This document shows positions 8,819-56,600 of a stretch of DNA of 64,000 bases, piece by piece (the first letter of the stretch is position 1; each line of letters starts with the position of its first letter). The notes below the pieces were generated by a model, which made no database searches, was not told the origin of the DNA, and was given only the letters and a program-made list of their open reading frames with translations. Made by a program: the position numbers and the translations under genes. The DNA comes from Deltaproteobacteria bacterium. Lineage in GTDB: Bacteria > Myxococcota > XYA12-FULL-58-9. Where the stretch lies: assembly GCA_016218825.1 (NCBI GenBank), contig JACRCV010000034.1:12177-76176 (forward strand), in the 5' to 3' direction.

Positions 8819-8977
8819 ACAAGTGTCAGGGCCTATAGTGAGTGCGGCGCGACAAGTCAAGCGCAAATCCCCTCGCAACGCGAGTCGGCCGAAAACTATC
8901 GGCCCTGATCGGTGGATGCTAGACTCGGCCGCAGCGTGCGCTCGGGTGGGTCGTGTGCCCGGCGCGGAGGCGTGCGA

Positions 8978-17900: not shown

Positions 17901-19498
17901 TGTTGACCCGCCTGAACGACGCGCCGCGCGCGACGACGATGCTGGAGCGTGCCGTCGAGTCGAGCCCGAACGACGTCGGTCTGCAACGGCAGCTGTTGTC
18001 GCTGCACGAGGAGCACGGCGACTGGCGCAAGTTCTTGGTGGTCGCCGAGCGGTTGCTGGCGCGGACCAAAGAAGACGAGCTCGACGCCCACTTCTTCGTC
18101 AAGCTGGCGCGTGCCTACTTCGAGGCCGCCGAGGACGTCGAGCGCGCCACCGAGTTCTACGGCAAGGCGTTGGCGAAGAGCCCGAACGATCCGGGCATCG
18201 CCGCCGACTTCGCCACCTTCGCGAAAGCGCACGGTGACTTCGCGACCTACGTCGAGGTCGAGCAGCGGGCGATCGCGCTGGCGCACGACGTCGACGAGCA
18301 GATCGGACGCTACCAAGAGGTCGCCGACGTCTGCCTGCACCAGCTGAAGGACCCCCAGAAGGCGGCGGCGGCGCTCTACAAGGCGCTCGCCATCCGGCCG
18401 AACGATCCGGAGATCACCCGGGCGCTCGCCAACACCTATGCGCTCGACCCGCGGTCGTACGCGCAGGCCGCGGACATGTACCGCGCCTTGATCCAGCTCG
18501 ACCCGCTCGACGTTCAGACCCTGCGGATCTTGGCGCGGCTGCACGGCCAGATGGGCGAGAACGACCGCGCCTACGGCTACTATGCCGCGCTGATGGCGAT
18601 CACCCCGAGCGACGACGAGGCCAAGCGCTTCGTCGCCGCCTGCCGCCCCGCGGTGCCGCCCGGGCCGCAGCGGGCGCTCGCCGACGCCGACCGGGTGCAG
18701 GGCCTGATTCACCCCGATCAGAGCGGGCCGATCGAGGAGCTGTTCGCGCCGCTGGCGCGCTTCGCCGAGCTCACCCACCCCGGCAACCTCGCGGCGCTGG
18801 GCGTCACCGAGCGCGATGTGCTGCCGGCGACCGACCCGCGCTTGCAGTGGTTGAAGCGGGTGCTCGAGCCGCTCGGTCTGCCGCAGGTCTCGATCTACGT
18901 GCGCCGCGGCGGCGGCTTCGCGTGTCAGGTGGAGCTCGTCGGCGCCCCGACGATCGTCGTCGGCTCGACGTTGGCGACCGACGCCAGTGATCGGCAGCGC
19001 GCCTTCCTGGTGGCCCGGGCCGCGGAGCTCTACCGCACCGGCCACGCGCTGGTCGAGCAGCTCACGGTGCCGCAGCTGACCGCGGTGGTCGGTGCCTTGT
19101 GCCTGGCGATCAAGCCCGACAGCTCGCCGCCCGGCTGCACCGAGGACACGCCGCTGTGGGCGAACACCATCGCCGCGCCGATGACCGAGAACATCCGCGC
19201 CTCCCTCGCCGGCAAGGCGCAGGGCTACCTCGACGTCGGGGGTGAGGTGGACTTCGGCCGCTGGAAGTGGGGCTCGGTGGCGACCGCGGGGCGGGTGGCG
19301 ATGCTGTTGTCGTGTGACGTCGAGGAGGCGATCGCGGCGGTGCTGCGGCTGCGCGGCGTCGACGACGTGACCGACGACCAGCGGGCGGCGGTGATCCGCG
19401 AGCTGCCCGAGGCGCTCGATCTGCTCCGCTTCGCGAGCAGCGAGCCGTTCTTCAAGCTGCGCCAGACCCTCGGCCTGGCGCTGCGCCGCTCGAAGTAA
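8978..19498 (+). CDS. Giant (~3500 aa) TPR-repeat protein, AgmK-like myxobacterial type
   Basis: Uninterrupted ORF with GC3-biased codons and dozens of TPR-like helical repeats. C-terminal LIHP..FLVARA..AGRVAMLLSCD..LLRF..SEPFFKLRQTLGL domain is typical of myxobacterial giant TPR proteins. GGAGG RBS before GTG8978. Confidence 0.85.
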   Translation: MAGKSKPAGEKIEALPTLEGALGFSLSFISGHGLLSMRDKRMGPFEIKILELEIPDIAFPFDVTGGAERFKSRRCTLRHLVYGLDAEGLAAALKRTDLKAAGFHEIRAAIRDGYTEFTGRFAVGEHQADFTFRAALVVRSPEELNIVFFDTRVYGWLPVPSGLLPEYLRRGLDLQFLAGGRAGVWVVRPIEHLLRELLPRNGWKIPDTRHAGLVAAEAARGQIVFVGGPEGEPSPKQIAERAPPPAAIRAGEGIATFGTAEEALGRGNIQLAYQYFREAVDDDRGGRWARERLLQIGASDPELAVETRQLAEETLTEEPQNVQALLALAAIALRERSWGEAANRYSALAEIARTHKDRFDALAADLATADAAKPVDPGAALAAYERAAARARDSLSAHRSLLELRSVQGDWQGAALAGERLARLESDVIRRAEIYSALGHIYRAQLGDLKRARLHFERALRLAPNDPTALEGLAETYAARGEPARAASYLSRLAEQAEEAGETSRIVTLNLRLGEIWERWLADLESATSRYMRVLDVDPKNRTARLRLAKLAEDKGDVTRARTLYEDILAAEEERGDPEAVPDLVAAYTRLARVTFTTDGPTPEAIACLERAVELDPTNRAARDELGKVLQQRGEWSRLLHLLDETIRVSQTPAETRYARLQAATIELKERRDRDAAERYLLQILDLHPDDADALAMLVPLLEAGGDWVEVIDRLSAAAQATTEPERRAAHCLKLSAAHAQLGFDVEVQRRDLESALDANPFHHAAAEGLLALALTQQDPHRISRALQRLATAATSDAARSAALTRRGVLLWRELRQPAEAEPVLYEAVRADAGNSDAWLALADILEARKAGAECGVILNNALATPGLAKAVAGSLHRRLADLAAQADDADAQIQHLTAAIECGLVTDEVCERLVLVLSKRGDRRLAAEHLEAWAAAQSGDAADDMVLRAAEVRRSLGDMDQAATLLRRLFEGAGRRKVEAADLLERVAVERADPKGLTEALTFKVAVAPPDAVLGLLERLVAAQLAASDVSAAEQTCARLLTLEPASPAAHRTMATIQEDRGEWQKAIDHYWQLLIETKRDRQDRNERRKAFERAAALVREIEPALLATLREAFDVEFPEAPPSALDRSLGDLLRAESKWQPLFELRRRQIQTASPQQAVTYRREAAEILHRHLGQSEKAIPYYQDVIAARPNDFQARAALVEVFTGLGRWGDLASLLFAMSQMVAEQADAIDYALHSAEIYADKVGDRATAIQVLNALTGVADTTGNARFAAALRKLGMTAELADYLEAAVAKSPDPEDPQFTELVGLLGGPLNDVARAVLWCERMSEAYPGAERPRRTLIDILKANPKAGSIDKALRAWAQALAGKPRARVLVELAEQVRQTGDERQALAVMAEAVEADPSSEQLLNHLVERYTARGEWDQVRTWLDRLAFATEPGAEREQRLRRLLEVATDYADSAEVAARALRALDHRTPAETRHLAQLFAQLGNIEGLGELGDVFDVLDRDTTLLVAKRLVAQGRLDEARRYLDAGIDKGGALQAWEIATEAWRAAGRLKDLGEWRFARAATASAEDRPLLQLLGRAELLEAGEVVAGAEAELMQELAAANLTNLASAWAVFSVAQSIGSQEWLDKAARSLEARLADSDPRFPRVLRARIDHELGRAHAAAAVPLARRLFEIDAATHEALYEKVLVAADETEALVALLGRRAETDAAAAPALWMQIAAIHIRHHAPARAGEALEHVAADARNTEWAKLALEVGALGPDPAMQAAGAQRMAVLAADPAAKAVWLRRYARIAWQDLKEVHAAKDALTEAQALLPLTTKAVLDEVAELHTHGKDAQAHQVLDEALAVLDGETSGVLWVERGELSLATGDAARALASLSRANEVVGGDAALWQRVGDLAAGLEEAELALKAFARAFEIDHEREQPYLEALKRAAEWDKLAAVLESRADDLAREPGAERLMAAAAIVRTHLDDSARALALMERATKLAPTIDNLRVTFKLAVELDRGSVVAALGPALLKRLPATDAEREAVLHRLVASLERLGLTADARPALEELRARKVATAEETLLLAQLLTDDDPVVAAGLLEDAAQGSRGAERGVRLFAAARARVAAKQTPLAVPLLTQAIADGVDAVEAHRLAVEILPGEARLKSVARLLAQGGDQGLEATVRAELRLELATDRLARGDADSAYTLLAELTQFAKPAAWAPTYEQALRALHKERELAELWLDAAAPSTWRGNDYLSRVREAASIFARLEDVLGELRALQTLGRLLPDDAEVQSRLVEVAAALGDKDQFAAHVRQEMESAKTPEARSGVALRYASVFKDRFEDLEAAAALLEQAYHQAPTAGLAKTLAATLVAAKEPVRAVSVLVEQVERETGVVQLRLLGIAAGIAATDANEAASAYALYHRIFDIDPTQVEAQKFCLAYSLEAEHWEDAIDVLERTAAVSKDPRAVYAELVRAADLARDELKDEKRELHLLEAAVEACPTEAEGVTRLVAKLLKHKDLDGALGLVLGGHVEAESELPMGMELLAALRRQQRSAEADHLLDFLAGRHPESTLGSEARLKNARASGDHATALRELKVQLTHSDALSAEELARLLAEAGRAAHALGDAAAALTYVTNAITTGDTEVASLRLAFELADELADTERLHLVMSRAAARRAEIAEHADGATGIERDHWRFLLARACETAGALDPAIAAYEAVSSDAPAAVLNGVLRGLERLYEKKNDWQKLAMLLNRRAAALEDSPTRAEIYHRMGVIWQHHLIDEERAGDCFALSLRADSSYGPAQLAYGLLLYQRNQFDLALALLSKCLEVADPATSTAELMALADCMRQTQAYDDALTVTAEILRREPKRTEILASRAEMLESLKRPAEAAVEWKRYLMAMGSGAPASQAAQVRRRLASLALAGDDQDAAVRELEEAHQLQSDDIEVIVSLRELYEKTQRWAEAVEMRVREAAIADDAEVRTGHYKTLAAILLTRLNDAPRATTMLERAVESSPNDVGLQRQLLSLHEEHGDWRKFLVVAERLLARTKEDELDAHFFVKLARAYFEAAEDVERATEFYGKALAKSPNDPGIAADFATFAKAHGDFATYVEVEQRAIALAHDVDEQIGRYQEVADVCLHQLKDPQKAAAALYKALAIRPNDPEITRALANTYALDPRSYAQAADMYRALIQLDPLDVQTLRILARLHGQMGENDRAYGYYAALMAITPSDDEAKRFVAACRPAVPPGPQRALADADRVQGLIHPDQSGPIEELFAPLARFAELTHPGNLAALGVTERDVLPATDPRLQWLKRVLEPLGLPQVSIYVRRGGGFACQVELVGAPTIVVGSTLATDASDRQRAFLVARAAELYRTGHALVEQLTVPQLTAVVGALCLAIKPDSSPPGCTEDTPLWANTIAAPMTENIRASLAGKAQGYLDVGGEVDFGRWKWGSVATAGRVAMLLSCDVEEAIAAVLRLRGVDDVTDDQRAAVIRELPEALDLLRFASSEPFFKLRQTLGLALRRSK

Positions 19499-23842: not shown

Positions 23843-24421
23843 CTAGAACTCTAGCTCGCGCGGATCGTCGTCGTCGTTGCTCTCGTAGTTTTCGCCGGCC
23901 TCGTTGCCGTAGTAGGCGACGTAGGTGTGGCGCTCGATGCGGTAGGCGGCTTCTTTCTTGAGGTCGACGCCGGGCAGGGTTTCGTCTTCGTAGGGGTCGA
24001 AGCCGCCCTCGACGAGCATGTCGTGCTTCTTCTGGTCGATGGGCTGCGGCATGTAGAACCACAGGGCGTCGTCTTCGGTCTCGGTGAAGAAGCCGTGGAC
24101 GATTTGAATGATCGCGTCGCGCGCGGTCTCGAGGTCTTCGACTTTCTCGTCGAAGAAGTAGACGAAGACGAACGGCTGGCCCGAATAGCCGACGACGCCG
24201 GCGTAGCCGGTGGCCTTGTCTTTGCCTTCGGGGAAGATCTCCCACACCCAAAGGGTCTCGTCGATCAAGTCGGAGCGCAGCTCTTTGAGCTGGGGTGGCT
24301 GGCGCCGGCCGGCAGAGAAGTACAGCCGCGGCTCTTGGAAGCGCTTGTGGAGCTCGCCGACCTTCTTGTCGTCCAGGCGCTTGAGCGTGGCTAGAGCGCC
24401 TTCGAGTGTCTCGCCGACCAC
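23843..24421 (-). CDS. Acidic hypothetical protein, possible GNAT (RimJ-like) fold
   Basis: GGAGGG RBS before GTG24421. Pattern LEG..ATLKRL..WVWEI....KATGYAGV...ARDAIIQIVHGFF...MLVEGGF resembles GNAT topology. Confidence 0.6.
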   Translation of the reverse strand: MVGETLEGALATLKRLDDKKVGELHKRFQEPRLYFSAGRRQPPQLKELRSDLIDETLWVWEIFPEGKDKATGYAGVVGYSGQPFVFVYFFDEKVEDLETARDAIIQIVHGFFTETEDDALWFYMPQPIDQKKHDMLVEGGFDPYEDETLPGVDLKKEAAYRIERHTYVAYYGNEAGENYESNDDDDPRELEF

Positions 24422-24565
24422 GTCGCCCTCCGGCGCAAACAACTCCGGCACCGTAGCACGGTGGGCGCCGGAGGAACAACTGCCGTTGCCGTGGTTCTTG
24501 CCATGTTCCCGAGGGGTTGGGTAGCATGCCGGGCAGAGAGCGCGGCATTCGAACCGCGCGCGCCC

Positions 24566-24580: not shown

Positions 24581-24648
24581 GGGTCATCGGTGTAGATCTA
24601 GGGGTCTAGCGCGTGTCGTCAGGAGCCTTGGGGCTCGAGGAGACCAGC

Positions 24649-25647
24649 ATGAGCTCAGCGGGTGGCGGTTCCGGCATCGGTCAGAGCAGCGTCCGAACCA
24701 CCTTCACGGTCTCTGACGGCGGCAACGTCAAGCTGCCGAACGGCGTGCAAGCCGACGTCACCACCCCCGAGGGGATGGCCGCGGCCAAGGCGCAGCTGTC
24801 CGCGTCGCAGCTCTCGGAGCTCGAGAAGTCGATGGCGCACTCGGGCTTCGTGCTGAAGGAAGGCACCTTCGTCCCGAAGGACAACTACGAGCTGCGGCGG
24901 GACGTGAGCGCGCAGGCCGGCCCCACCGCGACCACCGAGGGCCTGTCGCCAAGCGACACCGAGCTCATCAACAACGTGTTCGTGGCCAACGGGGTCGCGA
25001 GCCCGTACAACGCCAACACCACCGAGAAGCTCTACGCGCAGATCGGCAACACCCCGTCGTTCCAGGGCGCGGTGGCGGCGGGCAAGGCGGCGTTCGCCAA
25101 TCCGACCGCGGCGAACCAGGCCGAGTTCATCGCCAAGATGAAGGCGCTGAAGGCCGAGTTCCCGAACGGCAACATCATGGAGATCTTGTTCCTGGTGTTC
25201 CGCGAGTCGATCAAAGAGACCAACGAGGACAAGAAGTACTTCCTGATCAAGCTCGAGGAGTACAACAAGATGGCCGAAGACGTCTCGGCCTACCTCTCCG
25301 ACCTGGTCAAGGAGTCGCAGCGCCTGAGCGAAGCGTCGGCCGGCCAGAAGTATCCCGAGAAGGTGACGATTCAGGTGCAGGTCAAGTCCTTCGACCTCTC
25401 GACCCTCGGCACCGACGGCAACTTGAAGACCACGTCTACCGGCACCAAGACCCTCGACCGCGCCGGTTTGAACGACACCATCAAGGACGTCGAGTCGATG
25501 CAGGAGACCATCCGCAACAAGCGGCAGATGGCGTCGACGGCGTTCCAGAACTTCGACCAGAAGGCCAACCAGCTCTACAACTTGATGTCGAGCGTCCTCA
25601 AGGCCATCGGCGAGATGCGTCAGGGCACGGCCCGCAACATGATGTAA
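24649..25647 (+). CDS. Putative T3SS tip/filament-like (SctA/EspA/SseB/Bsp22-position) secreted protein
   Basis: GAGGAG RBS, Ser/Gly-rich N-terminus without signal peptide, helical body, C-terminal FQNFDQKANQLYNLMSSVLKAIGEMRQGTARNMM like T3SS axial proteins; lies immediately before the class II chaperone. Confidence 0.6.
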   Translation: MSSAGGGSGIGQSSVRTTFTVSDGGNVKLPNGVQADVTTPEGMAAAKAQLSASQLSELEKSMAHSGFVLKEGTFVPKDNYELRRDVSAQAGPTATTEGLSPSDTELINNVFVANGVASPYNANTTEKLYAQIGNTPSFQGAVAAGKAAFANPTAANQAEFIAKMKALKAEFPNGNIMEILFLVFRESIKETNEDKKYFLIKLEEYNKMAEDVSAYLSDLVKESQRLSEASAGQKYPEKVTIQVQVKSFDLSTLGTDGNLKTTSTGTKTLDRAGLNDTIKDVESMQETIRNKRQMASTAFQNFDQKANQLYNLMSSVLKAIGEMRQGTARNMM

Positions 25648-25750
25648 CGGCGCGCGCGACATCGACAGACGGCGCGGCACGCAGCGTTTCCATGCCGGAT
25701 GAACTCTGATAGCTCAGGGGTGTCCGCACTCACTATACGGGAGGAACCAG

Positions 25751-26842
25751 ATGGCAACTGCGGCCAAGGGTCCGAGCTTCGACGAGATCGCCAAGATCCC
25801 CGACCAAGACCTCGAAGAGATCATCGCCGCCATCAAGAAGGGCGCCGAGCATCCCGGCGACGCGCTCGGCTTCGGCCCCGAGGCGCTGAACGCCATCGAG
25901 AACATGGCGCTCAGCTACTACCGCACCAAGATGTACGACAAGGCCGCGGTGATCTTCGGCTTCGTGCTGCAGATGAACTCTGCTCGCGCCACCGGTTGGC
26001 GGGGCCTGGGCGCGTGCATGCACGCCCTGAAGCGCTACGAGCTCGCGACCTTGTGCTACCAGAGCGCGGTGCAGGCCGATCCGAACGACGTGGTCTCCAA
26101 GGTCTACTGGGGCGAGGTGCTCTGTCAGACCGGCAAGAAGGCCGAGGGCCTGAAGCTCCTCAAAGAGGTGACGGCGAAGGGGACCAAGAACGACGACTAC
26201 AAACCGTACGTGACGCGGGCGCGCGCGGTGGTCGCGGCCGACGGCGGCATTCCGGCGCGCCTGGTGTTGAAGAAGCAGGGCGAGAAGCTGGCGCAGGACG
26301 CGGGCGAGGCGCTCTTGCAGGGCGCGGCGGGGCCGGAGTACGACGAGAACCGCGAGATCTCGGTGGAGGACATGCAGAAGAACCCCGAGCTCAAGAAGCT
26401 GCTCGGTGACCTCGCCAAGGCGGTCGAAGAGGGTAGGCTGACCTATGCGCAGGTGGGCGGCTTCAGCCAGATGGAGCTGGACGGCGCGTATGCGTGCGCC
26501 TGCAAGTACGCCGAGATGGGGCAGGTGCTGCAGGCGATTCAGATCGCGGGCTTCTTGATGTTCCTCGACCCGTACGGCGGTCGCTATTACCAGCTGGTGG
26601 GGATCTGCCTGCAGCGGATGAAGCAGTACGAGAACGCCGATCACTACTACAACATGGCGTTATTGTTCGACAAAGAAGACCCGATGTCGCTCGTCTATCG
26701 GGGGGAGTCGAAGATCATGTCGGGGAAGACGGACGAGGGCCTGCAGTTCGTGAAGCGGGGCATTGCGGCGGCGAAGGGCAAGGCCGAGCACAAGGACATC
26801 GTGGACCGCGGCCAGGTGTTGGTGCGTCAGTTTGGTGGTTGA
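25751..26842 (+). CDS. Tandem (two-domain) SycD/LcrH-family class II T3SS translocator chaperone
   Basis: Two 3-TPR units: GFGPEALNAIENMALSYY..YDKAAVIFGFVLQMN...WRGLGAC and GFSQMELDGAYACA..FLMFLDPY..RYYQLVGIC..YENADHYY..DPMSLVYRGE. GGAGG RBS. Confidence 0.85.
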   Translation: MATAAKGPSFDEIAKIPDQDLEEIIAAIKKGAEHPGDALGFGPEALNAIENMALSYYRTKMYDKAAVIFGFVLQMNSARATGWRGLGACMHALKRYELATLCYQSAVQADPNDVVSKVYWGEVLCQTGKKAEGLKLLKEVTAKGTKNDDYKPYVTRARAVVAADGGIPARLVLKKQGEKLAQDAGEALLQGAAGPEYDENREISVEDMQKNPELKKLLGDLAKAVEEGRLTYAQVGGFSQMELDGAYACACKYAEMGQVLQAIQIAGFLMFLDPYGGRYYQLVGICLQRMKQYENADHYYNMALLFDKEDPMSLVYRGESKIMSGKTDEGLQFVKRGIAAAKGKAEHKDIVDRGQVLVRQFGG

Positions 26843-26913
26843 GGCGCGGCCCGAAAAGGCCTGACCTGTGTATGTATAGAAGCTCGACGACACGGACCTA
26901 GCTGGAGGACGGC

Positions 26914-28965
26914 ATGAGCAACGTACGCGATGGCGCAGGTGCTGGTAGGGCGGCGGTGACGCCGGCGCCGATCGAGCCGCAGGTGCGGCAGAACCAACTC
27001 CAAGCGCAGCAGCTGCAAGCGGCGTTGCCGAAGGTCGGCAGCGTCGACCCCGCCGACGTCAACCGTGACCTCAATCAGCTGCTGCAGCGCGCCGGGCTCG
27101 AGCGCGCCGCCGACGGCGCGTTCGTCGTCAAGGACACCGCGTCGGTCGGCAAGACCGGTGAGGTCAAGGGTCTGACCTCGGCCGAGCAGGTGTACGGCAG
27201 CGGCGAGACGCAGCTGAAGCCGCCGGGGCCGCCGCGGATCGAGATGACGACCGACCTGCGGCGCGGCGCCGAGACCTTCGCCCAGAACATCGACACGGTC
27301 TTCAACGACGTGTTGCTGCGCTCCTCGTCCTCGGGGCTGCAGGCCGGTCAGACCGATCTGCCGACGACGGCGGTGCGGGTGACGGGCACCGATGACCGCG
27401 TGTGGACGAGTGGTCGCGACGTCCCGATGACGGCGCGCGGCGCGGCCGGCGGCGGGGCGGGGGACACGACCGGGACCACGGGCACTACGGGCACGACCGG
27501 GACCACGGGCACTGCGGGCACTACCGGGGCCACGGGCGCGACGGCGCAGACCGGCGAGATCACACCGGAGATGTTCCGCAAGATCGCGGAGCTGACGGCC
27601 GACGTGTTGCTCGCGGCGTTCTTGAAGCTGAACATCACCGACCCCAACAACTCGGTCGACACCCAGAACAAGCTGCAGGAGATCATGACACTCTTGCGGC
27701 AGAAGGGCATCGACGACGCTAAGGCGCAGATCAAGAACGCCGAAGCGGCGCGCAAGGCCGCCGAGGCTTATGCGCAGCAGGCGCAGTACATCAGCAACGT
27801 CATCTCCGTCGTCATGATCGTCTTGACGCTCGTGCTCACGGCGCTCACCTGTGGTGCGGGCGCGGTGTTGTTCGTCGCGGTGGCGATGATCATCGGCGCC
27901 CTCATCGGCGCGGCATCGGGCGGGTCGCAAGGGGCGCTCGCGGGCGCGTCGATCGCCGGCTCGATTGCGAGCATGGGCGCGGGTGCGGCGGCGACGGCGG
28001 CGGCGCAGGCGGCCAAGGTGGCCGCGGACGGCATCATCGCGCAGATCAAGGCGTTCATCGAGACGTTCATCAAGGAGCTGGTCAACAAGCTCGTGGCGTT
28101 CTTCAAGTCGCTCGCGAACATGTTCGCGAGTGGCGCCAAGGAAGCCGCGACGCAGGCCGCGCAGCAGGCGGCACAGACGGCGAAGTCGCTCGCCCAACAG
28201 ACAGTCGAGAACACCATCGAATACGCGAAGAGCATCGGCCAGGAGGCCGTCAACTCGGCGGTTCAGAGCGCGGGCGACATCGCCCAGGAAGCGGCCAACC
28301 AGACGATTCAAGGGTTGCAGCAGCAGGGCGTGCAGGTCACCCAAGAGATGGCGCAGGACATCGCCAAGAGCGCAGCCCAGGGCGCCGTCGATGGCGTCAA
28401 GAACGCTGGCCAAGAGGTAACGCAGGAAGTCGTGCAAGAGGCGGCGCGCGGGGCGGCGGAGGGTACTGTGAACGCGCTACGGACCTCGGGTGTCGAGGTC
28501 ACCGAGCAGATGGCGGCGGACATCGCGAAGAGCTCATCGGAAGGCGCGCTCACCGCGGCGAAGGAAGCCGGCATGACGGTGACGCCGGAGTTGACCACGG
28601 CCGTTCAAAACAGCGCCACGGCCGGGGCGACCTCGGGCATGAAGGCGTCGGTGGCGCTCGGCGGCTACATGTCGCGGAGCACCGCGACCGCGATCCAGTC
28701 GATCGTCGGCGCGGGTGGCGAGGTCGTGAAGGCGAAGGCGAACGAGACCGCGATCCAGAAAGACCTCGAGGCGCAGGAGAAGTCGATCGCCGCGAAGCGC
28801 GCCCGGCTGCAGGCGGAGATGGCGCAGCAGATGATCCAGGAGTCGGGCGAGATCATCAAGATGATCATGGAGTCGAAGAACCAGGTCGTCGAGGCGGTGA
28901 TGAAGATGATGGCGGCGATGTTCGCGTCGAGCCAAAAGATGATGTCCGCGAGTATGTCGAAGTAG
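26914..28965 (+). CDS. SctE-like (YopB/IpaB/SseC) major translocator
   Basis: No signal peptide; TQLKPP chaperone-box-like motif; coiled coil followed by a hydrophobic hairpin ISVVMIVLTLVLTALTCGAGAVLFVAVAMIIGALIG; Ala/Gln/Met-rich amphipathic C-terminus; follows the chaperone. Confidence 0.75.
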   Translation: MSNVRDGAGAGRAAVTPAPIEPQVRQNQLQAQQLQAALPKVGSVDPADVNRDLNQLLQRAGLERAADGAFVVKDTASVGKTGEVKGLTSAEQVYGSGETQLKPPGPPRIEMTTDLRRGAETFAQNIDTVFNDVLLRSSSSGLQAGQTDLPTTAVRVTGTDDRVWTSGRDVPMTARGAAGGGAGDTTGTTGTTGTTGTTGTAGTTGATGATAQTGEITPEMFRKIAELTADVLLAAFLKLNITDPNNSVDTQNKLQEIMTLLRQKGIDDAKAQIKNAEAARKAAEAYAQQAQYISNVISVVMIVLTLVLTALTCGAGAVLFVAVAMIIGALIGAASGGSQGALAGASIAGSIASMGAGAAATAAAQAAKVAADGIIAQIKAFIETFIKELVNKLVAFFKSLANMFASGAKEAATQAAQQAAQTAKSLAQQTVENTIEYAKSIGQEAVNSAVQSAGDIAQEAANQTIQGLQQQGVQVTQEMAQDIAKSAAQGAVDGVKNAGQEVTQEVVQEAARGAAEGTVNALRTSGVEVTEQMAADIAKSSSEGALTAAKEAGMTVTPELTTAVQNSATAGATSGMKASVALGGYMSRSTATAIQSIVGAGGEVVKAKANETAIQKDLEAQEKSIAAKRARLQAEMAQQMIQESGEIIKMIMESKNQVVEAVMKMMAAMFASSQKMMSASMSK

Positions 28966-29000
28966 CGCCTGTAACACTTACGCTGACTTTGGGAGGCCCC

Positions 29001-29870
29001 ATGAGCAGCATTTCGAGCAGCCCCGGTTACCAGTCCACCACCATCGACTACGTCGGCAACAACCGTTACCGGGTGTTGAACGAGCGCGACAAGGACGGCG
29101 ACGGCGTCGTCGACGGCAAGGCGCTCTCGGGTGACGAAGGCAAGATCGTCAACGAAGGCACCGTCAACCAGCTGCTCAAGGCCCGCGGCTTGCAGGCCGC
29201 GAACGGCAGCTTCCAGTCGGTGGACGGGTTCCAGATCAACGCGTCGAACAGCTCCGCGGTCACGACCTTCGGCTCGGATCCGGTGTTGCCGAGCGTGAGC
29301 GGCAAGTCGGCGGCGGCCTCGAGCCTGCGGGGCCAGTTCGATTGGTTCGAGATGTCGCAGGGCCTCTCGGACGCGGCGTTGATGTGGAAGACGTTGTCGA
29401 CCTTGGCGCACACCGCGATGCGGGACATGAAGGACGCCGGCGACATCCGCGACGCGATGCAGAAGGGGAAGATCGAGGCCAAGTCGAACGAGATCAAGGC
29501 CGCCGAGTCACGGATCGCGGCGGAGAAGGCGGCGGCGACCCAGACCTTCATCTGGTCGTGCGCCTCGGCGGCGGTGACCGCGATCGCGGGCACGACCGGC
29601 GCCAACGCCGGGCTCGCGGGCGGGCTCGGTGAGGTGGTGAAGAGCTACGGCAACATGGTGAACAAGACCTCGGGGCCGCAGGCGGAGGCCGACCGCCAGC
29701 AGATCCGCGAGAAAGAGTTCTCGAAGCAGGCGGAGATCATGGACATGGCCATCGACGAGGCCAAGTCGAACTACGACGAGTCCAAAGAGCTGTTCAAGAA
29801 CGCGCTCAAGGCCATCTCCGATCACGTCGACCGCGAGAGCCAAGCGACGCAGGCGATCACGCGCGGCTAG
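29001..29870 (+). CDS. SctB-like (YopD/IpaC/SseD) minor translocator
   Basis: GGAGG RBS, Ser-rich N-terminus MSSISSSP, PVLPSV motif, coiled coil, moderately hydrophobic FIWSCASAAVTAIAG..GLAGGLG, C-terminal ..ESQATQAITRG. Confidence 0.7.
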   Translation: MSSISSSPGYQSTTIDYVGNNRYRVLNERDKDGDGVVDGKALSGDEGKIVNEGTVNQLLKARGLQAANGSFQSVDGFQINASNSSAVTTFGSDPVLPSVSGKSAAASSLRGQFDWFEMSQGLSDAALMWKTLSTLAHTAMRDMKDAGDIRDAMQKGKIEAKSNEIKAAESRIAAEKAAATQTFIWSCASAAVTAIAGTTGANAGLAGGLGEVVKSYGNMVNKTSGPQAEADRQQIREKEFSKQAEIMDMAIDEAKSNYDESKELFKNALKAISDHVDRESQATQAITRG

Positions 29871-29894
29871 CGAACGCGGTAGAATAGAGGGTGA

Positions 29895-32204
29895 ATGGCC
29901 GACAATCTCACCGTTGGCTCACCGGGCGCCGGTACGGCGACCCGCGCCGAGGCGTCCAAAGACAAGCGCGTCGATGACGGCAAGGGTGAGCTCGAGCGCC
30001 TGCGGCAGCTCGCCAAAGAGCGCGGCGGCGGCAATCTCGACGACAAGACGCTGACCGCCATCGTCGAGCGCCGCAAGGCCAAGATCGCGCTCACCAACGA
30101 GATCAAAGAAGCCAAGCAGTCGTTCGAGACCGCGCAGAACAAAGTCTCGCTCGCCAACAAGGCCGACGAGGCCCAGACGCGCGCCGCCAAGGCGACCGGC
30201 ACCCAGGAGACCAAGACCGCGGACGGCTTGAACGAAAAGGACCGGACCGCGGTGCGCTCCGATCCAAAGGCCGGTCCGCGGCTGCCGCCCGCCGACGCCA
30301 AGTCCACGACCCCGGAGCAGGCGAAGGCGTTGCTCGGCAAGCTCCTCGAGACCGTGACAAAGGACGGCCAGCCCTTCGACCTGCAGGCCTACGCTCAGAC
30401 CCTCAAACAACGGCCGGCAACCGCCGCCAAGCAGGGAGGTTCGCCGCAGGGCCTGCCCGCGAAGCTCGGCCGCGAGTCGAGCGGCCTGTCGGCCGGCGGC
30501 GTCGGTGGCACGCGGGCGCCGACGAGCGGGGCGCCGGGGCAGCGATCCGGGTCGACCGCGACGCTGCCGCGCCAGGCCGCGGCCAGCGGCAATCAAGCCA
30601 CCAAGCCGGGGTCGTTGCCGACCGAGACCTCGGCGGCCAAGGCGGGTTTGGGCGCGCCGAGCGCCGGTGCGAGCTTGAGCTTCAGGACGACCGGCGGCAC
30701 CAACTTGGCGACCGGGACCGCGGTGTCGGCGGACGGGCTCTTCAACGCCGGCGGCGGGCTCATCACCAACTCCAGCTTCGACGGCATGCACTTCAACTGG
30801 GACGGCTTCTTCGCGTTGTTCCTGATCAAGTCGCAGAAGGACATGCAGGAGTGGCGCAAGATGATGAAGGAGCTGCGCCGGCTCGAAGGCGAGGCGGCGG
30901 TGCAGGCGCACAACACCGCGATCGCGCTGTTGAAGATGCGGCAGAGCTTCGAGCGCGCCGACGCGGTCCGTGGCTTCACCGAGTCGCTCTCGGCCCTGCC
31001 GCGCCGGATGAAAGAGGATCGAGTCAACGAGTTTTGTTTCGGCAAGGACGTTGCACAGCAGAAGACCGACGTCGCCGCGAAGAAAGCGGAGCAAGAGGTG
31101 CGCGGCCTGCTCGCGAAGCTCCGCGAGAAGAACGCCCAAGTGCCGGCCGGTCGGGTGTTCTTGACGCCGAGCGAGCAGAAGGCGCTCAAGGCGGACGAGG
31201 CGGCGGAGTACCGGAAGGCGGTCGAGAAGTACGCCAAGGAGGCGCGGCCGAGCGCGGCGGCGGGTCAGCTCCTGGCAGATCTGCGGGCCGCCGACAAGAC
31301 GCTCGCGGCCAAGATCCCCGAGGGTCAGGTGTACTTGACCGAAGCGCAACAACAGGCGCTGGGGGCGGAGGGCGCGGCGCAATACAAGGCGATCATGGCG
31401 AACCTCGGCACGCGCGAGGGGCCGCTCAACAAGGCCGGGCTGATCGCCGACGCGATCGACGCGGTGCAGAAGGACGCCACCCTCAACACCACAGACAGGG
31501 ACGAGATCGTCGGCAAGCTCAAGACCGAGCTCGGCGCCGCGAAGAGCGGCATCGAGATGATGGTCCGGGCGATGATGGCCGACCCCGAGACCGCGTCGCT
31601 GTTGAACGAGCAGCGCATCGTGTTGCGCGGCGAAGAGCAGAAGGCGAAGAAGGCGGGCGCGCCGGGGCAGCGCAGCTTGTTGCGTCAGGTGGTGATGCTC
31701 GACACCGCGATGGCGGCCGGGGAGCCGAAGAACGCCGAGCGCACCGAGCGCTACGCACGGGCGCGGACCGAGCTGAAGACCAAGGGCGCGGGCACGGCCA
31801 ACGTCGATCAACAACTGGCGCAGATGGACCGACTGATCGGCCCGAACGGCGCGCAGCCGGGCGCGACGCCCGGGGACGATCCGCTCGAGAAGCACCTGGA
31901 CGACAAGAGCGACTCGCTGCTCGATATCGCCGCGGCGGCGGGCGACGGCTTGGCGCAGGAGCGCAAGGGGTTGCACCACGACCTGCGTTGGGAAAAAGGA
32001 TTCAAGGATGTCGAGAGGGCACTGCGCAGCGTCGCCAACGACCAGGACATCGTCCGCGCGGTCGACAACGCGGTGCAGGGCGCGATCGCTGCGGCCCAGC
32101 GCGGCCGCGCCGAGTGTGACGTCCTGATGCGCCAGACCGTGGGCAAGGCCCAAGGCATGATCAACCAGCTCCTCCAACTGCTCGCGATGTCGCGCTCCCA
32201 CTGA
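29895..32204 (+). CDS. Large secreted translocator-/effector-like coiled-coil protein
   Basis: Co-oriented in the operon, no signal peptide, disordered N-third with PRLPPA, central FFALFLIKSQKDMQEWRKMMKELRR coil, internal ~55-aa duplication. Confidence 0.6.
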   Translation: MADNLTVGSPGAGTATRAEASKDKRVDDGKGELERLRQLAKERGGGNLDDKTLTAIVERRKAKIALTNEIKEAKQSFETAQNKVSLANKADEAQTRAAKATGTQETKTADGLNEKDRTAVRSDPKAGPRLPPADAKSTTPEQAKALLGKLLETVTKDGQPFDLQAYAQTLKQRPATAAKQGGSPQGLPAKLGRESSGLSAGGVGGTRAPTSGAPGQRSGSTATLPRQAAASGNQATKPGSLPTETSAAKAGLGAPSAGASLSFRTTGGTNLATGTAVSADGLFNAGGGLITNSSFDGMHFNWDGFFALFLIKSQKDMQEWRKMMKELRRLEGEAAVQAHNTAIALLKMRQSFERADAVRGFTESLSALPRRMKEDRVNEFCFGKDVAQQKTDVAAKKAEQEVRGLLAKLREKNAQVPAGRVFLTPSEQKALKADEAAEYRKAVEKYAKEARPSAAAGQLLADLRAADKTLAAKIPEGQVYLTEAQQQALGAEGAAQYKAIMANLGTREGPLNKAGLIADAIDAVQKDATLNTTDRDEIVGKLKTELGAAKSGIEMMVRAMMADPETASLLNEQRIVLRGEEQKAKKAGAPGQRSLLRQVVMLDTAMAAGEPKNAERTERYARARTELKTKGAGTANVDQQLAQMDRLIGPNGAQPGATPGDDPLEKHLDDKSDSLLDIAAAAGDGLAQERKGLHHDLRWEKGFKDVERALRSVANDQDIVRAVDNAVQGAIAAAQRGRAECDVLMRQTVGKAQGMINQLLQLLAMSRSH

Positions 32205-33331
32205 TGCTCGGCCTGCCGGCGGCGTTTCAGAAGCTCTCCCAGGTGGACCTGGAGGGTTACCCACGCCGCACCGAGGCAGGGATCGGCGCTCTCGCGGTGG
32301 CGTGCGGCTTGAGTCCGGAGCCCGAGCTGGCGCGCTTTCGCAGCTGCCGCGACTTTCTGGGGGTGGCGCAACGGGCGCCGGCGGCGGCCGACTTGCTGGC
32401 CCAGGTCACCGAGTCGGTGACGCTGGTGGCGCCGCTGATCGTCGAGCTGGTGGCGACCTACAGCGGCGACGGGCTCAAGGGCTTCGGTTTCTTGACCCAG
32501 GGGCGGCCGAGCGGCCCGTTGCCGGCGAACCTCGCCGGGTTGTTGTCGGGCACGCTGCAGATGCACCTCACGGGCGGCGGTCGGACCGACGAGGCCGAGC
32601 TGTTGGCCGACGTGTTTCGCCTGGCGTTTCCGAACCTGGGTGGGCTCGCGGGCCACTCGCCGTTGTCGCAGGGCATGATCGTCGGCGTGGTGCCGGCGGC
32701 CGACGCCCTCACCCTCAAGGTCTACTTCAACACCCGTCTCGATCCGAGCGGCAACCACCGCGAGCGGGTGGCGTCGATCCTGGCGCGCTGCGGTTTGGCC
32801 GACGACGGGCTTTACGACTTGCTGTATGCCGGCAATGACGGCGCGCGTTTCCATGGGGTCGGTATCGACCTGGACGGCGACGGCTGTCGGCGCGCCAAGA
32901 TCTACGTGCGCCTGAACCGCGCCGCGCTGCTGCCGGCCCTCGAAAAGCTCGCGACGCACCTGCAACCGGACATGGCGGCGGCGGCGCGAGGCATCCTGAA
33001 CCCGGTCTTGGAGCTCATCGAGGCCACGAAGAGCGAGGCCCAGGTCGACGAGGTCGAGCTGGCGGCGGCGCTGTGCAGCGACGCGCCGGCGACCGCCAAG
33101 GTGACGTTGTTCTTTGCCGGAGACCGCACCGCGGACGCCGATCTGACGACGCTCGACACCTATCTACAGGGTCTCGGCTATCCGGCGCACGGGCTCGACG
33201 CCGCGGTCAAGGCGCTCGCCGAGAACGCACATCGGGCGGTGGCGCAGCGTTATCCGCTGCACGGGGTCGGCATCGAGGTGCCGGTGGCGTCGCGACCGAA
33301 GATCAATGTCTATTTGCAGCCGGTGTTGTAG
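32204..33331 (+). CDS. ABBA/PT-barrel aromatic prenyltransferase-like protein
   Basis: Repeating helix-helix-strand-strand units ending LKVYFN, GVGIDL....RAKIYVR, AKVTLFF and GVGIE....KINVYLQP; start overlaps the upstream stop (TGATG). Confidence 0.6.
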   Translation: MLGLPAAFQKLSQVDLEGYPRRTEAGIGALAVACGLSPEPELARFRSCRDFLGVAQRAPAAADLLAQVTESVTLVAPLIVELVATYSGDGLKGFGFLTQGRPSGPLPANLAGLLSGTLQMHLTGGGRTDEAELLADVFRLAFPNLGGLAGHSPLSQGMIVGVVPAADALTLKVYFNTRLDPSGNHRERVASILARCGLADDGLYDLLYAGNDGARFHGVGIDLDGDGCRRAKIYVRLNRAALLPALEKLATHLQPDMAAAARGILNPVLELIEATKSEAQVDEVELAAALCSDAPATAKVTLFFAGDRTADADLTTLDTYLQGLGYPAHGLDAAVKALAENAHRAVAQRYPLHGVGIEVPVASRPKINVYLQPVL

Positions 33332-33343
33332 TCGGGTGCGGGT

Positions 33344-34045
33344 CTACTCTTCTTCTTCGGGGTCGTCCTTCTTGCCGAGCGGCATGTCGTCGATGTAGCC
33401 CGAGTGCCGCAGGTAGGCGCGCAGTCGGCCGCGGAGCCGCGACTCGGCGGTGCGGACCTTCATGCGGGTCGAGCCGATGGCGGCGGCGGTCTCCTCCTGA
33501 CCCTTGCCTTCGGCGAAGCGCAACAGCAGCAGCTGTTGGTCCTGTTCCGAGAGCTCGGCCATGAACTTGCCGACCAGGCCGGTGATCTCGATGTGCTCCA
33601 TCTCCGAGTCCTGGGGCTTCGAGGGGCTGCCGTAGAGGACGCCGGTGTACTCCTCGGTGATCTCGTCGTCCATCACCGCCAGATGACCGCGCTCGTCGGT
33701 GGGGGCGATGTACTGCGAGAACGCGATCTCGCGGTTGCGGAACTGGTTGATGACCATGTTGCGGCCGATGGCCAGCACCCAGTTGGTGAAGGAGTTGATG
33801 CCGTTGTAGGAGTCGCGGGCGCGGGCCTCGAAGGCGCGGCGAAAGACCTCCTGCACCGCGGCCTTCAGATCGGCCGGGTCTTGGATGCCCTTGAAGTAGA
33901 AGCTGCCCTTGCCGCTCCTGAAGGTGAAGCCCTTGCGCAAGAAGGCGGTGACCCCCGGCGCGTAGTGCCGGTACACCTCCGTCATCGCTGCCCGCTCGCC
34001 GCGCTTGAAGGCGGCGAGGAGCTTCTTGTCCTTCGCCAAAAACAT
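33344..34045 (-). CDS. ECF-type RNA polymerase sigma factor
   Basis: LLAAFKRGERAAMTEVYRHY, DLKAAVQEVFRRAF, FTNWVLAIGRNMVIN (region 2); LSEQDQQLLLLRF..QEETAAAIG..KVRT (region 4). Confidence 0.9.
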   Translation of the reverse strand: MFLAKDKKLLAAFKRGERAAMTEVYRHYAPGVTAFLRKGFTFRSGKGSFYFKGIQDPADLKAAVQEVFRRAFEARARDSYNGINSFTNWVLAIGRNMVINQFRNREIAFSQYIAPTDERGHLAVMDDEITEEYTGVLYGSPSKPQDSEMEHIEITGLVGKFMAELSEQDQQLLLLRFAEGKGQEETAAAIGSTRMKVRTAESRLRGRLRAYLRHSGYIDDMPLGKKDDPEEEE

Positions 34046-34102
34046 TGAGTCGACGCCCAAGGTACCGCGAGCGGCTCTACGACGCTAGGGCTCGGACGAG
34101 CG

Positions 34103-38408: not shown

Positions 38409-39908
38409 ATGAACGCTCGTCAACCGCTGGCCTTCGTTGTTGCCGTCGCCACCCTCCGCTGCGCCACCTCGACGCCGGCCACGCGTGAACCGGTCGGCGC
38501 GCCCGCCGCCCCGGTGCTGCCTGCCGTGGCCGAGAGCGCCCCGGCGGCGGTCGTCGTCCAGCCGGCGCGCGACATCGAGGGGGCGTTGGTCTTGGTGGAG
38601 GCGGGACGGGTCATTCAGCGGGAGCGCGGTGAGGGCGGGGCCGCCGACGCGATCCGCACCTACCGCGAGGCGCTCGCCGCCGACCCGAAGTGCGCCGCGG
38701 CGCTCTGGGAGCTCGGCTGGTCGTACCAAGTGCAAGCCGAGCTGGACCAGGCGGTGGCCGCGTGGGACGAGCTCAAGGCGCTCGAGCCCGGCTACCCCGA
38801 CCTCGACCGACACTACCCGGTGTTGTTGATGCGCCGCGACCAGGCGCGGGCGTTGGCCGCGCTCCCCGACCCCGGGGTGCTCCCGGAGCGCGAGACAGCG
38901 CCGCGCGAGGGGCCGACGTTGACGTTGAAGGCAGTGGGTGACGTGAACCTCGGTCGTGCCTGGCCCGCCGATCGGGCGACATTGCCGGCGAACGACGCGC
39001 GCGATCTCTTCGTGCCGTTCGCCGAGGAGCTCAAGGCCGCGGATTTGACCATCGGCAACCTCGAGACCGTGCTCGCCGACAGCGGCGACTCCACCAAGTG
39101 CGGACCGAAGTCGACCAAGTGCTTCTCGTTCCGGGTGCCGACGAGCTACGCCGCGGCGCTCAAAGAGGCCGGCTTCGACATCATGGGCATCGCCAACAAT
39201 CACGCCGGCGACTTCGGCCAGGAGGGCCGCGCCGCGACCAAGCAGGCGCTTGACGCGGTCGGCATCAAGTACAGCGGCACCATCGGTGACGTCGCGAGCG
39301 TCGAGATCAACGGGCTGCGGCTGGCGTTGATCGCGTTCTCGTTCGGCGCCGACGTCTACAGCATCCTCGACATTCCGACCGCAAAGCGCGTGGTCGCGGA
39401 CTTGAAGCGGCGCCACGACCTGGTGGTGGTGTCGTTCCACGGCGGCGCCGAGGGCGCGGATGCCGGCCACGTGCCGAAGGAGGTCGAGCGCTTCCTCGGC
39501 GAGAACCGCGGCGACGAGTACGGATTCGCGCACGGGGTCGTCGACGCCGGCGCCGACTTGGTGGTGGGTCACGGGCCGCATCGGGTGCGGGGCGTCGAGA
39601 TCTACAAAGGCCGCTTCATCGCCTACAGCCTCGGCAACTTCTGCACCTACAAGATGTTCGGGCTCGCGGGCGCCCTGGGCGTCACCGCGGTGCTCGGCGT
39701 GACCCTGGCGGCGAACGGCGTCGTGACCGAGGCGCGCCTGGTGCCGGGGATCATCGACCAACCCGGGATCCCACGGCCCGACCCGACCGGCCAGGCGATC
39801 AAGCTGGTTCGCGACCTGTCGCGGCAGGACTTCGGCGACGCGGTGCTCGACGCCGCCGGGCACTACCAGCGCAGCGCGCCCGCGGCGGCTACTGCAAGCT
39901 CCCCGTGA
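38409..39908 (+). CDS. CapA (PGA_cap) family metallophosphoesterase with N-terminal TPR
   Basis: AVGDV, GNLET, ANNHAGDFG, SFHGGAE, GADLVVGHGPH, YSLGNF; TPR ALWELGWSY. Confidence 0.92.
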   Translation: MNARQPLAFVVAVATLRCATSTPATREPVGAPAAPVLPAVAESAPAAVVVQPARDIEGALVLVEAGRVIQRERGEGGAADAIRTYREALAADPKCAAALWELGWSYQVQAELDQAVAAWDELKALEPGYPDLDRHYPVLLMRRDQARALAALPDPGVLPERETAPREGPTLTLKAVGDVNLGRAWPADRATLPANDARDLFVPFAEELKAADLTIGNLETVLADSGDSTKCGPKSTKCFSFRVPTSYAAALKEAGFDIMGIANNHAGDFGQEGRAATKQALDAVGIKYSGTIGDVASVEINGLRLALIAFSFGADVYSILDIPTAKRVVADLKRRHDLVVVSFHGGAEGADAGHVPKEVERFLGENRGDEYGFAHGVVDAGADLVVGHGPHRVRGVEIYKGRFIAYSLGNFCTYKMFGLAGALGVTAVLGVTLAANGVVTEARLVPGIIDQPGIPRPDPTGQAIKLVRDLSRQDFGDAVLDAAGHYQRSAPAAATASSP

Positions 39909-42900: not shown

Positions 42901-43005
42901 GCTGCGGAGATCGGGCGGGGCCGAGTCACTCCCACCCGTGATATGGCGGGCGCCGCAGCCGGAGGCGAGGAGGGCTATCGCGAGGTATCTCGAGGCGTTC
43001 GTCAT
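39889..43005 (-). CDS. Large surface lipoprotein with Cys-containing Ig-like repeats and a beta-rich C-terminal domain
   Basis: ATG43005 MTNASRYLAIALLASGC lipobox; repeated ..C.V.D.FGN..G.Y...C modules; DSTGPVLGVTSPAR Ig-like unit; C-terminal DDLLNQVLWALW.GG. Confidence 0.8.
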   Translation of the reverse strand: MTNASRYLAIALLASGCGARHITGGSDSAPPDLRSVHTTASPAAITAGDEVSVWCAIEKDGAPAPSERSTVAASPPAFAATADGTNGWRVRLRTAGLVTVYCMTADQMVQDPVGAVVTVRPAPYVGSVDTTLALNPAGAGLPVDVGCAIYDVFGNLASDLRPTGIDADPALLVDPPSGAGFVVRGTHVGTYPIACRVDQIIDTTPALVTIIEGIPGKSDTSVDLTTITPGQEVTATCSVSDAFGNPLTGVPTTIAVLAADGATAADSGLVMTDSTFAATRSGTYYVFCRVPGYAAGDESPAVVTVTWGLPCTWAVDLATQDCYWRGRRLPLDALVYDVWGNRVEDAGFTLVATPDQGIVPAPQGGWVFTEEGDFDLAISVTGPTDPSCAAAPGSAAVPYLTNLRVDSTGPVLGVTSPARAAMLPTGPNTDLDIGIAGSATDAVSAIVDLTLNGAGLPVSGANLTEPVVGTASSRWGLTIITGSATDACGNRSVLAQSFLRSGAYFNASLAPDPGARVAQGILAQLNQSVLDDGNRSTLNDIASIGETIIRTTDWNGLIPADPPLASNDTSGRRCSAGCCFWCDTWVDADYELRRDANRSIYIEGPYITSLTAVDGGLAFDVLIGQADFPLTLWARDRECTCGIGPTTIASFSTTGTAGADWVRATGALQVSLSGGVPRAAVASMSLSTGGLYVSIGCASWLQWACDGFTDLLISVFEPTIEDALAGAISDQIPPLVEGMLGGFAIESGLEIPPPMSMHLELASGLDRVVFCGPSAGIAKPAECPATSPDPGYGQLGLYSQLYPGARGAGIPSDALGAIRKDGALPAFSASAYSFGMGLKDDLLNQVLWALWYGGGLDLDAADLAPLVSGTGVPGISMSLRALLPPVAMPGRNGAQLELGVGDMMIDATVDLAALLGTASSGPPLHVGLYLSAILGGSLLIDQSTNVLQTQFNLQPTVAVQVYAIDDPAYQGTMSDLFTGLMQLLLPSILGGVMASFPIPEINLGNIANLPTGTDAVWTLTGAQIDRASDYYRITGSLQ

Positions 43006-55443: not shown

Positions 55444-55448
55444 CCACC

Positions 55449-56581: not shown

Positions 56582-56600
56582 AGCAGTCGAGGAGCCACTG

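Follow-up and report, generated by a model that had tools for sequence, protein, structure and literature searches.

Translocon operons of type III secretion systems (T3SS) are well known in pathogens. They are ordered lcrV-lcrH(sycD)-yopB-yopD in Yersinia and pcrV-pcrH-popB-popD in Pseudomonas, encoding in turn the tip, the chaperone, the major translocator, and the minor translocator, and the operon of SPI-1, a pathogenicity island found in Salmonella, has the order sicA-sipB-sipC-sipD-sipA-iacP. Here we describe a six-gene cassette, g1 to g6, carried by a 64,000-nucleotide stretch of contig JACRCV010000034.1 (assembly GCA_016218825.1, a genome affiliated to the Myxococcota). The whole stretch is called the window, and coordinates without a contig name are positions within it. 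The cassette is probably the translocon operon of a scattered injectisome-type T3SS in an uncultured, flagellated, Myxococcota-affiliated order, a reading that includes a terminal gene, g6, whose product most likely prenylates a cassette protein. It differs from the operons of pathogens in its lineage, in its chaperone, and in its prenyltransferase homologue.

The cassette occupies positions 24649-33331 and consists of six co-oriented open reading frames (ORFs) on the + strand, with high coding scores under a codon model trained on the genome, in a window whose G+C content is 63-74%:

g1, 24649..25647, + strand: 332 aa, hydrophilic and helical; candidate tip/filament protein (SctA-like).
g2, 25751..26842, + strand: 363 aa; predicted two-module class II T3SS chaperone of the LcrH/SycD type.
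g3, 26914..28965, + strand: 683 aa; predicted major translocator of the SseC/YopB/IpaB family (SctE-like).
g4, 29001..29870, + strand: 289 aa; candidate minor translocator (SctB-like) by position and architecture only.
g5, 29895..32204, + strand: 769 aa, basic, with an isoelectric point (pI) of 9.4; matches no family.
g6, 32204..33331, + strand: 375 aa; divergent homologue of DMATS-type (ABBA/PT-barrel) aromatic prenyltransferases.

The original prediction had described six co-oriented, closely spaced genes without Sec signals, and this description holds: none of the six proteins has a hydrophobic N-terminus, and the gaps between g1 and g5 measure 103, 71, 35, and 24 nt. A GGAG-like site lies upstream of each of g1-g5 and none precedes g6, whose ATG overlaps the TGA of g5 by one base (-1 nt). 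Two start codons had alternatives. For g1, a GTG at 24613 would give 344 aa, and the family alignment, in which relatives begin at the methionine of an MSS... sequence, favours the ATG at 24649; for g4, it favours 29001 over 28989.

With the Yersinia and Pseudomonas operons the cassette shares its gene order, the fit of g2 to the LcrH/SycD model, and a SctV, encoded elsewhere in the genome, that is nearest to 'low calcium response' SctV structures. It differs from them in the lack of an LcrV Pfam match for g1, in having no canonical P/VxLxxP anchor, in the extra genes g5 and g6, and in its tandem chaperone. The likeness to SPI-1 lies in content: a chaperone of class II, two translocators (major and minor), a tip protein, a large protein that is secreted, and a terminal lipid-modification gene, the accessory protein encoded at the end of the SPI-1 operon acting on the major translocator. 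By contrast with SPI-1, the tip-like gene stands first, the chaperone modules are fused in tandem, the accessory gene encodes an aromatic prenyltransferase homologue rather than an acyl carrier protein, the candidate minor translocator and tip have no detectable family, and the operon is detached from the apparatus genes.

The chaperone and the major translocator

The product of g2 scores 137.4 bits with the TIGR02552 model, above its cut-off of 104.8, over two stretches (residues 35-161 and about 216-360), and the SicA, SscB, and SscA models match the second module. Taken singly, the modules score 78.2 and 66.1 bits, each under the 104.8 cut-off, so that the protein passes only as a tandem. 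Since all 16 aligned members of the family are 359-377 aa long, all 16 relatives are tandem too. These matches identify g2 as a predicted chaperone of class II (LcrH/SycD) in the form of a covalent tandem; the SycD/LcrH chaperone of the original prediction was rightly named, but it is made of two LcrH-like modules and not of a single unit. In the window, as in each locus of a relative that spans both genes, g2 lies directly upstream of the SseC-family gene. According to a 2026 review, class II chaperones are normally dimers that bind a Pro/Leu anchor N-terminal to the membrane segment, with one client per palm, and several known translocators also lack the P/VxLxxP anchor (PMC13466201). The word 'tandem' appears there once, for arrays of tetratricopeptide repeats (TPR) (PMC13466201). 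No description of a fused class II chaperone was found in a limited search of the open-access literature, which is not proof of absence.

The evidence on g3 comes from its family. The Pfam SseC model (PF04888) is matched by 22 of the 29 family members at E<=0.01 (best 2.3e-15), and a precomputed PF04888 domain is found on three of seven database relatives. A paralogue of g3 on contig C8 spans SseC positions 5-310 of 312. The window's own protein has a hydrophobic hairpin at residues 289-339, which forms one continuous 51-residue stretch with two peaks (2.47 and 2.56). A single-sequence search of PDB sequences gave nothing useful, and the profile search gave a weak match to AopB (3wxx_B, E 0.015) amid low-complexity noise. 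The family matches place g3 among the SseC-family translocators, as had been proposed, with a predicted pore-forming activity.

The candidate minor translocator and the candidate tip protein

In the relatives' loci g4 always stands directly after g3. Its N-terminal PxLP motif occurs in 14/14 family members and is a variant of the anchor, not its consensus; the PxLP/LPP variant is conserved in g4 and g5. The family alignment further shows an invariant tryptophan (Trp133), and the protein has one moderately hydrophobic segment (residues 187-205, hydropathy 1.26) followed by a helical C-terminus. Only 22 relatives were found among 5.8 billion proteins, all without Pfam domains. Position and architecture make g4 a candidate minor translocator.

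For g1, the nearest clusters in the ESM Atlas carry LcrV on 12% of their members (score 0.96) and EspA on 12% (score 0.93). The stored ESM Atlas model is a long helical hairpin with a predicted local distance difference test (pLDDT) value of 0.69, and it aligns to prefoldin-type hairpins. One family member matches T3SS_needle_F at E 0.18, and contig C61 encodes a g1 paralogue (hhalign probability 94.7%). The language-model evidence makes g1 a candidate tip/filament-like (SctA-like) protein, a lead rather than proof. A direct relationship of g1 to the needle-like proteins of the genome was rejected at hhalign probabilities of 5-10% and 0.2%.

The C-terminal ~55 aa of g1 are extremely conserved within the family. 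Residues ~286-344 (window 25504-25647) correspond to a module common to a set of orphan ORFs, with ~65-70% identity. The records that carry these ORFs are titled Nitrosarchaeum (an archaeal chromosome), Spirochaetales, Planctomycetes, and others. Among the loci L099:9779-10180 and L100:9923-10198 are an ORF of 133 aa in the record titled Nitrosarchaeum chromosome (GC 32.5%) and one of 91 aa, with a hydrophobic N-terminus, in a metagenome-assembled genome (MAG) of Spirochaetales. Some sources label the short proteins with this module 'methyl-accepting chemotaxis protein'.

The large cargo candidate and the prenyltransferase homologue

In the family alignment of g5 both termini are conserved, the middle is of low complexity, and an LP(P) motif close to residue 130 is invariant. 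The gene is kept after g4 in the relatives' loci, and its product is presumed to be a secreted substrate.

As a single sequence, g6 matches nothing in Pfam, in NCBIfam, or among PDB sequences. From 1.84 billion representatives a profile search collected 74 relatives, and a profile of 50 of these sequences gave 10 matches in the PDB at E<=10, all 10 being indole/DMATS prenyltransferases (6zrx at 3.2e-10, PriB at 1.2e-6, 6-DMATS at 1.2e-5, and CymD at 0.028). The Pfam family Trp_DMAT (PF11991) is matched by 22/50 members at E<=1 (best 2.1e-4) and not by the window's own g6, which reads as a distant DMATS relative and not as a Pfam-threshold member. The claim that the last gene encodes an enzyme is in line with these profile matches. 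Eight residues (Y174, R178, R230, K232, Y234, E285, K299, and Y370) are at least 90% conserved in the 50 sequences; the conserved Lys, Arg, and Tyr lie on alternating strands, of which the K-x-Y and R-x-K-x-Y strands align to 6zrx. These residues may be equivalent to the catalytic residues of the solved enzymes. Compared with bacterial DMATS-type indole prenyltransferases (6zrx/6zrz, PriB 5inj, 6-DMATS 7w8u, and CymD 6os3), g6 has a similar length (~370 aa) and profile E values down to 3e-10. It differs from them in being very divergent, with no Pfam match, and in belonging to a secretion operon rather than to a natural-product cluster.

The overlap of start and stop codons predicts that g6 is translationally coupled to g5. 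Because of this coupling, and of the restriction of g6 to cassette-bearing genomes described below, g6 would work on or with the cassette. A limited search of the open-access literature turned up no publication on a prenyltransferase within a T3SS operon, again not proof of absence, and no paper on 6ZRX.

Conservation and the wider neighbourhood

Conservation was assessed in 22 genomes of the same GTDB order (the order sample), in 401 genomes of the phylum (the phylum sample), and, for synteny, in 20 loci with their flanks from 18 relatives. The relatives are MAGs throughout, from records titled Myxococcota, uncultured Bdellovibrionales, or Deltaproteobacteria. Since the simple gene caller under-calls low-GC relatives, the loci were compared by tblastn. 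A check of cassette synteny across related MAGs, proposed with the original prediction, came out in its favour: three or more of the six are collinear in 17 of the 20 loci, which come from 16 of the 18 genomes, over G+C contents of 39-69%. This arrangement is far beyond chance. All six genes were found in five loci, and in one family g3 is present twice.

The g3 family occurs in 19/22 genomes of the order, or 20/22 with a profile, and g6 is single-copy in 17/22. Three of the five genomes from which g6 is missing retain g3. A g5 homologue stands directly upstream of g6 in 12 of the 17 genomes, and the two genes overlap or are separated by at most 18 nt in 7/7 relatives with gene calls. In the phylum sample, strong g6 matches (at least 231 bits) and strong g3 matches are confined to this order, and matches of either gene outside it are weak (42 bits at most). 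The g3 profile gives the same picture, with strong matches in 20 of the 22 order genomes and only seven others, all weak and all outside the order.

Two genes beside the cassette are probably also part of the conserved module, and a promoter match lies upstream of g1:

g0, 23843..24451, - strand: 202 aa, acidic (pI 4.4), divergent from g1; no Pfam family at E<=0.001.
Sigma-70-like promoter match, 24498..24527, + strand: upstream of g1; weak.
Sigma-70 family factor resembling extracytoplasmic function (ECF) sigma factors, 33344..34060, - strand: convergent with g6; Sigma70 r2/r4 domains.

A g0 homologue lies upstream of g1 in 10 of the 11 relatives' loci that have an upstream flank, and a sigma-factor gene adjoins g6 in 10 of 17 genomes, with 57-88% identity. 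The comparison of loci thus indicates an eight-gene neighbourhood (g0, g1-g6, and the sigma gene) conserved across the order. The sigma factor matches SigD/ECF sigma structures in the PDB (E ~1e-4) and is a possible regulator; g0 is possibly a dedicated chaperone or regulator. The single promoter match is not significant on its own, since shuffled sequences give 0.5 +/- 0.7 sites, and the scan for terminators and promoters gave nothing above shuffles. The flanks are otherwise unrelated: a CNNM/CBS transporter, the small acidic gene on the - strand, the convergent sigma-factor gene, and a SulP transporter. With such neighbours the cassette stands alone, as had been claimed. Elsewhere in the window are a single ORF of 3508 aa with a very high coding score (8972-19498, + strand) and an ORF of 1038 aa (39889-43005, - strand) that scores strongly for coding and matches no Pfam family at E<=0.001. 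One DNA sequencing run contains the stretch and may be its source, and no RNA run with it was listed.

Secretion machinery elsewhere in the genome

The genome measures 6.54 Mb in 121 contigs, is 96.5% complete, and contains two FHIPEP genes. One is the SctV gene on C66, which scores 842.1 bits with the hrcV model (cut-off 692.25), and stands alone among housekeeping genes; its best solved relatives are SsaV and the 'low calcium response' SctV proteins, with FlhA behind them. SctN on C17 (607.3 bits, cut-off 604.75) and SctR on C109 (219.3 bits, cut-off 208.6) also exceed their cut-offs. C109 further carries paralogues of FliQ, FliR, FlhB, and FliN (SctS/T/U/Q-like), and SctJ-, SctL-, and FliJ-like genes with scores below the cut-offs adjoin SctN on C17. 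The core genes are thus spread over three contigs other than that of the cassette. All 22 genomes sampled from the order have SctV-type genes, and in 20 the score exceeds the cut-off. The flagellar cluster is separate, on C26 (50.9-84 kb), and comprises the other FHIPEP gene, FliF, FlgE, and FliP over cut-offs, and FliG/H/I/O/Q/R and FlhB; the FlhA-type second FHIPEP gene is full-length in at least 10 of the 22 order genomes. Judged by these profile scores, the genome appears to hold a dispersed injectisome-type (non-flagellar) T3SS apart from its flagellar cluster, in agreement with the dispersed injectisome that had been suggested from the window. Myxobacteria are known as non-flagellated. 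The same suggestion had spoken of a myxobacterial-type genome, which fits poorly: with a full flagellar cluster and uncultured MAGs as relatives, this is not a classical myxobacterium.

The gene order of C17:1-12.3 kb resembles yscI-J-K-L-N-O, with a 167-aa rod-like protein, a SctJ-like protein, a 368-aa protein with a faint FliG match, a SctL-like protein, SctN, and a FliJ/SctO-like protein; the inner-rod, K, and needle labels on this contig were assigned by eye. C17 also encodes a sigma factor of the FliA/WhiG type, a protein that binds c-di-GMP, a TPR protein of 138 aa, and a Gly/Ser-rich protein of 182 aa whose C-terminus is needle-like. This C-terminus is similar (BLASTP E 7e-5) to that of a C53 protein of 317 aa, which matches the needle Pfam model below threshold.

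Four more chaperone and substrate cassettes were found, on C61, C32, C98, and C8, in which LcrH-like chaperones adjoin helical proteins of no known kind. C61 (72-82 kb) carries two LcrH-like chaperones, the g1 paralogue, and a 767-aa protein, and on C32 (34.9-38 kb) two chaperones flank a 465-aa protein with a needle-like C-terminus, right after rpoN and phosphotransferase system genes. On C98 (57.0-58.9 kb) and C8 (86.3-88.0 kb), LcrH-like chaperones lie beside g3-like proteins, that of C8 being a second SseC-like protein.

Two secretins were considered as SctC. The best match of the YscC model in the genome is a protein of the window itself, and it was rejected as PilQ with AMIN domains beside pilM. 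It belongs to a pilM-N-O-P-Q type IV pilus cluster (53822-60725); at 1365 aa it is unusually long, and its domains are AMIN, STN, and Secretin_N. The statement that the window's 64 kb hold no sct core gene agrees with the genome searches. The other is a 470-aa secretin on C100 (12658-17436), followed by two FHA-domain proteins of 669 and 432 aa. This secretin and the YscD-like match beside it were provisionally set aside as SctC and SctD, given the 470-aa length, an N-terminus that is CpaC-like by eye, and matches limited to FHA domains; the locus, named by eye, may be a Tad/Kil-like apparatus.

Scattered T3SS loci are typical of Chlamydiales, according to Abby and Rocha (2012, PMC3459982). 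As in Chlamydiales, the core genes lie in several loci, SctV stands alone among housekeeping genes, and there are several chaperone-plus-substrate cassettes; unlike in Chlamydiales, the genome has a free-living size of 6.5 Mb and a flagellum. Closer in taxonomy are the Myxococcales, whose T3SS is described as having no secretin, needle, tip, or translocon (Abby and Rocha, PMC3459982), and Myxococcus xanthus, whose system is termed a needleless T3SS* in PMC12075869. The present lineage comes from the same phylum-level neighbourhood as Myxococcus, and no YscC-type secretin was found in its genome; it differs from T3SS* in having a translocon cassette, an injectisome-like SctV, and flagella.

Proposed mechanism and alternative explanations

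In the mechanism that we propose, the paired TPR modules of g2 would stand in, on one chain, for the dimer that such chaperones usually form, and would hold g3 and g4, and perhaps g5, in the cytoplasm via their N-terminal Pro/Leu motifs. The substrates would leave through the SctV/N/RSTU machine. A needle-like filament would be capped or extended by g1, g3 and g4 would insert into the target membrane as a pore, and g5 would be a further exported protein. Finally, g6 would most likely prenylate a cassette protein at an aromatic residue and so aid membrane insertion; the candidate target in g4 is the invariant Trp133, and in g5 the FNWD motif. A parallel would be found in Salmonella, where the acylation of SipB reportedly needs IacP, an acyl carrier protein encoded at the end of the translocon operon. 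Prenylation of a g4 or g5 aromatic residue is favoured because of the coupling and restriction of g6 and because of the IacP precedent. A more specific version combines three elements: a DMATS-type g6 recruited to prenylate Trp or Tyr of full-length g4 or g5 before export, priming the translocon for membrane insertion; a single-chain chaperone with two pockets; and the first translocon-bearing injectisome lineage inside the Myxococcota, with flagellated members. It is put forward tentatively and is on balance unlikely.

Several observations weigh against the cassette being the translocon operon of an injectisome with its own prenyltransferase. No T3SS core gene adjoins it. The tip and minor-translocator assignments of the original prediction found no family-level support in Pfam, NCBIfam, and PDB searches: none of 15 g1 members matches LcrV, IpaD, or EspA in Pfam, and single-sequence and profile searches of the PDB gave no g1 match; none of 14 g4 members matches a minor-translocator Pfam family at E<=1, and there is no PDB profile match. 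The window's own g3 reaches only 19.9 bits (E 6.1e-4) with Pfam SseC, below the gathering score of 30.2, and the canonical P/VxLxxP anchor occurs in 0/29 members of the g3 family and 1/14 of the g4 family. No family in Pfam, NCBIfam, or PDB sequences and no usable ESM Atlas match was found for g5. The last ~55 aa of g1 share 60-90% identity with the ends of 37 short proteins and of small orphan ORFs, and at the orphan loci tblastn with the six cassette proteins detects the g1 match alone; because it also occurs in ORFs with no detected translocon neighbours, this module may not be T3SS-specific. The genome-wide check for export apparatus, needle, and secretin gave a divided result. SctV, SctN, and SctR exceed their cut-offs. 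The needle Pfam model gives only sub-threshold matches across the genome, in large proteins, and no YscC-type secretin over the cut-off, SctD, or SctW/HrpJ was found in this 96.5%-complete, 121-contig genome, a search that left out the secretin-domain ORFs on C107 and C40 and does not show absence; matches to the YscD model are confined to the FHA domains of two proteins. As for g6, its action on a protein is a proposal, and the known DMATS enzymes prenylate small molecules or peptides.

This last point leads to an alternative that keeps the translocon and changes the role of g6, which would be an exported effector prenylating an aromatic molecule in the target cell, or the maker of a small prenylated indole or phenol used alongside injection. 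The solved relatives of g6 are all small-molecule or peptide DMATS-type enzymes, g6 is the last gene of the operon, in other systems effectors follow translocators, and three of the five order genomes without g6 (of 22) retain g3. Yet the tight g5-g6 junction is conserved in 7/7 relatives with gene calls, g6 is single-copy with strong matches only where the cassette occurs, and the module contains no other biosynthetic gene, so this alternative is possible but on balance unlikely. The original prediction had instead raised a link to the needleless T3SS* of Myxococcus, by which the cassette would serve an apparatus for the contact-dependent killing of bacterial prey, as in Myxococcus xanthus, and not an injectisome aimed at eukaryotic cells. 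The lineage is Myxococcota-affiliated, no SctC or SctD was found in the genome, and a Tad/Kil-like secretin and two FHA proteins are present; T3SS* is described as working with a Tad-like system (PMC12075869). However, Myxococcus-type systems are described as having no translocon, tip, or needle (PMC3459982), whereas this genome encodes a translocator family, a class II chaperone, and proteins with needle-like C-termini, and its SctV (842 bits) is of the injectisome type, with injectisome proteins as best solved relatives. The link to T3SS* is consequently not upheld, and we regard it as improbable. Finally, the six genes might be unrelated to type III secretion, a TPR protein standing beside membrane and coiled-coil proteins that have another purpose or are cargo of the flagellar export gate. 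In keeping with this, no core gene is adjacent, g1, g4, and g5 have no family, and many TPR proteins in the genome give weak LcrH matches (54 matches); but both g2 modules strongly match translocator-chaperone models only, the g3 family belongs to SseC, a non-flagellar SctV is present in 22/22 order genomes, and the flagellar cluster is complete and separate. We consider a role outside type III secretion very improbable.

Biological implications

If the cassette is the translocon operon of an injectisome, as we favour, its novel element is g6, and the role of the prenyltransferase is the interesting question that the operon raises. To our knowledge, lipidation of a substrate protein by prenylation of an aromatic residue is not known for any secretion system. 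Should g6 indeed lipidate a secreted protein, bacterial secretion would offer a novel post-translational modification and ABBA enzymes would have a novel class of substrate, and the idea is testable with recombinant proteins, without culturing the organism. The covalent tandem of g2 would be a class II chaperone that occurs naturally as a single chain, and it could reveal how two translocators are sorted by the same chaperone. For the order as a whole, the translocon cassette marks an entire uncultured lineage affiliated with a phylum whose described T3SS are said to have no needle, tip, or translocon, and this lineage is thereby relevant to when, and by what route, injectisomes acquired the parts that pierce membranes (Abby and Rocha 2012).

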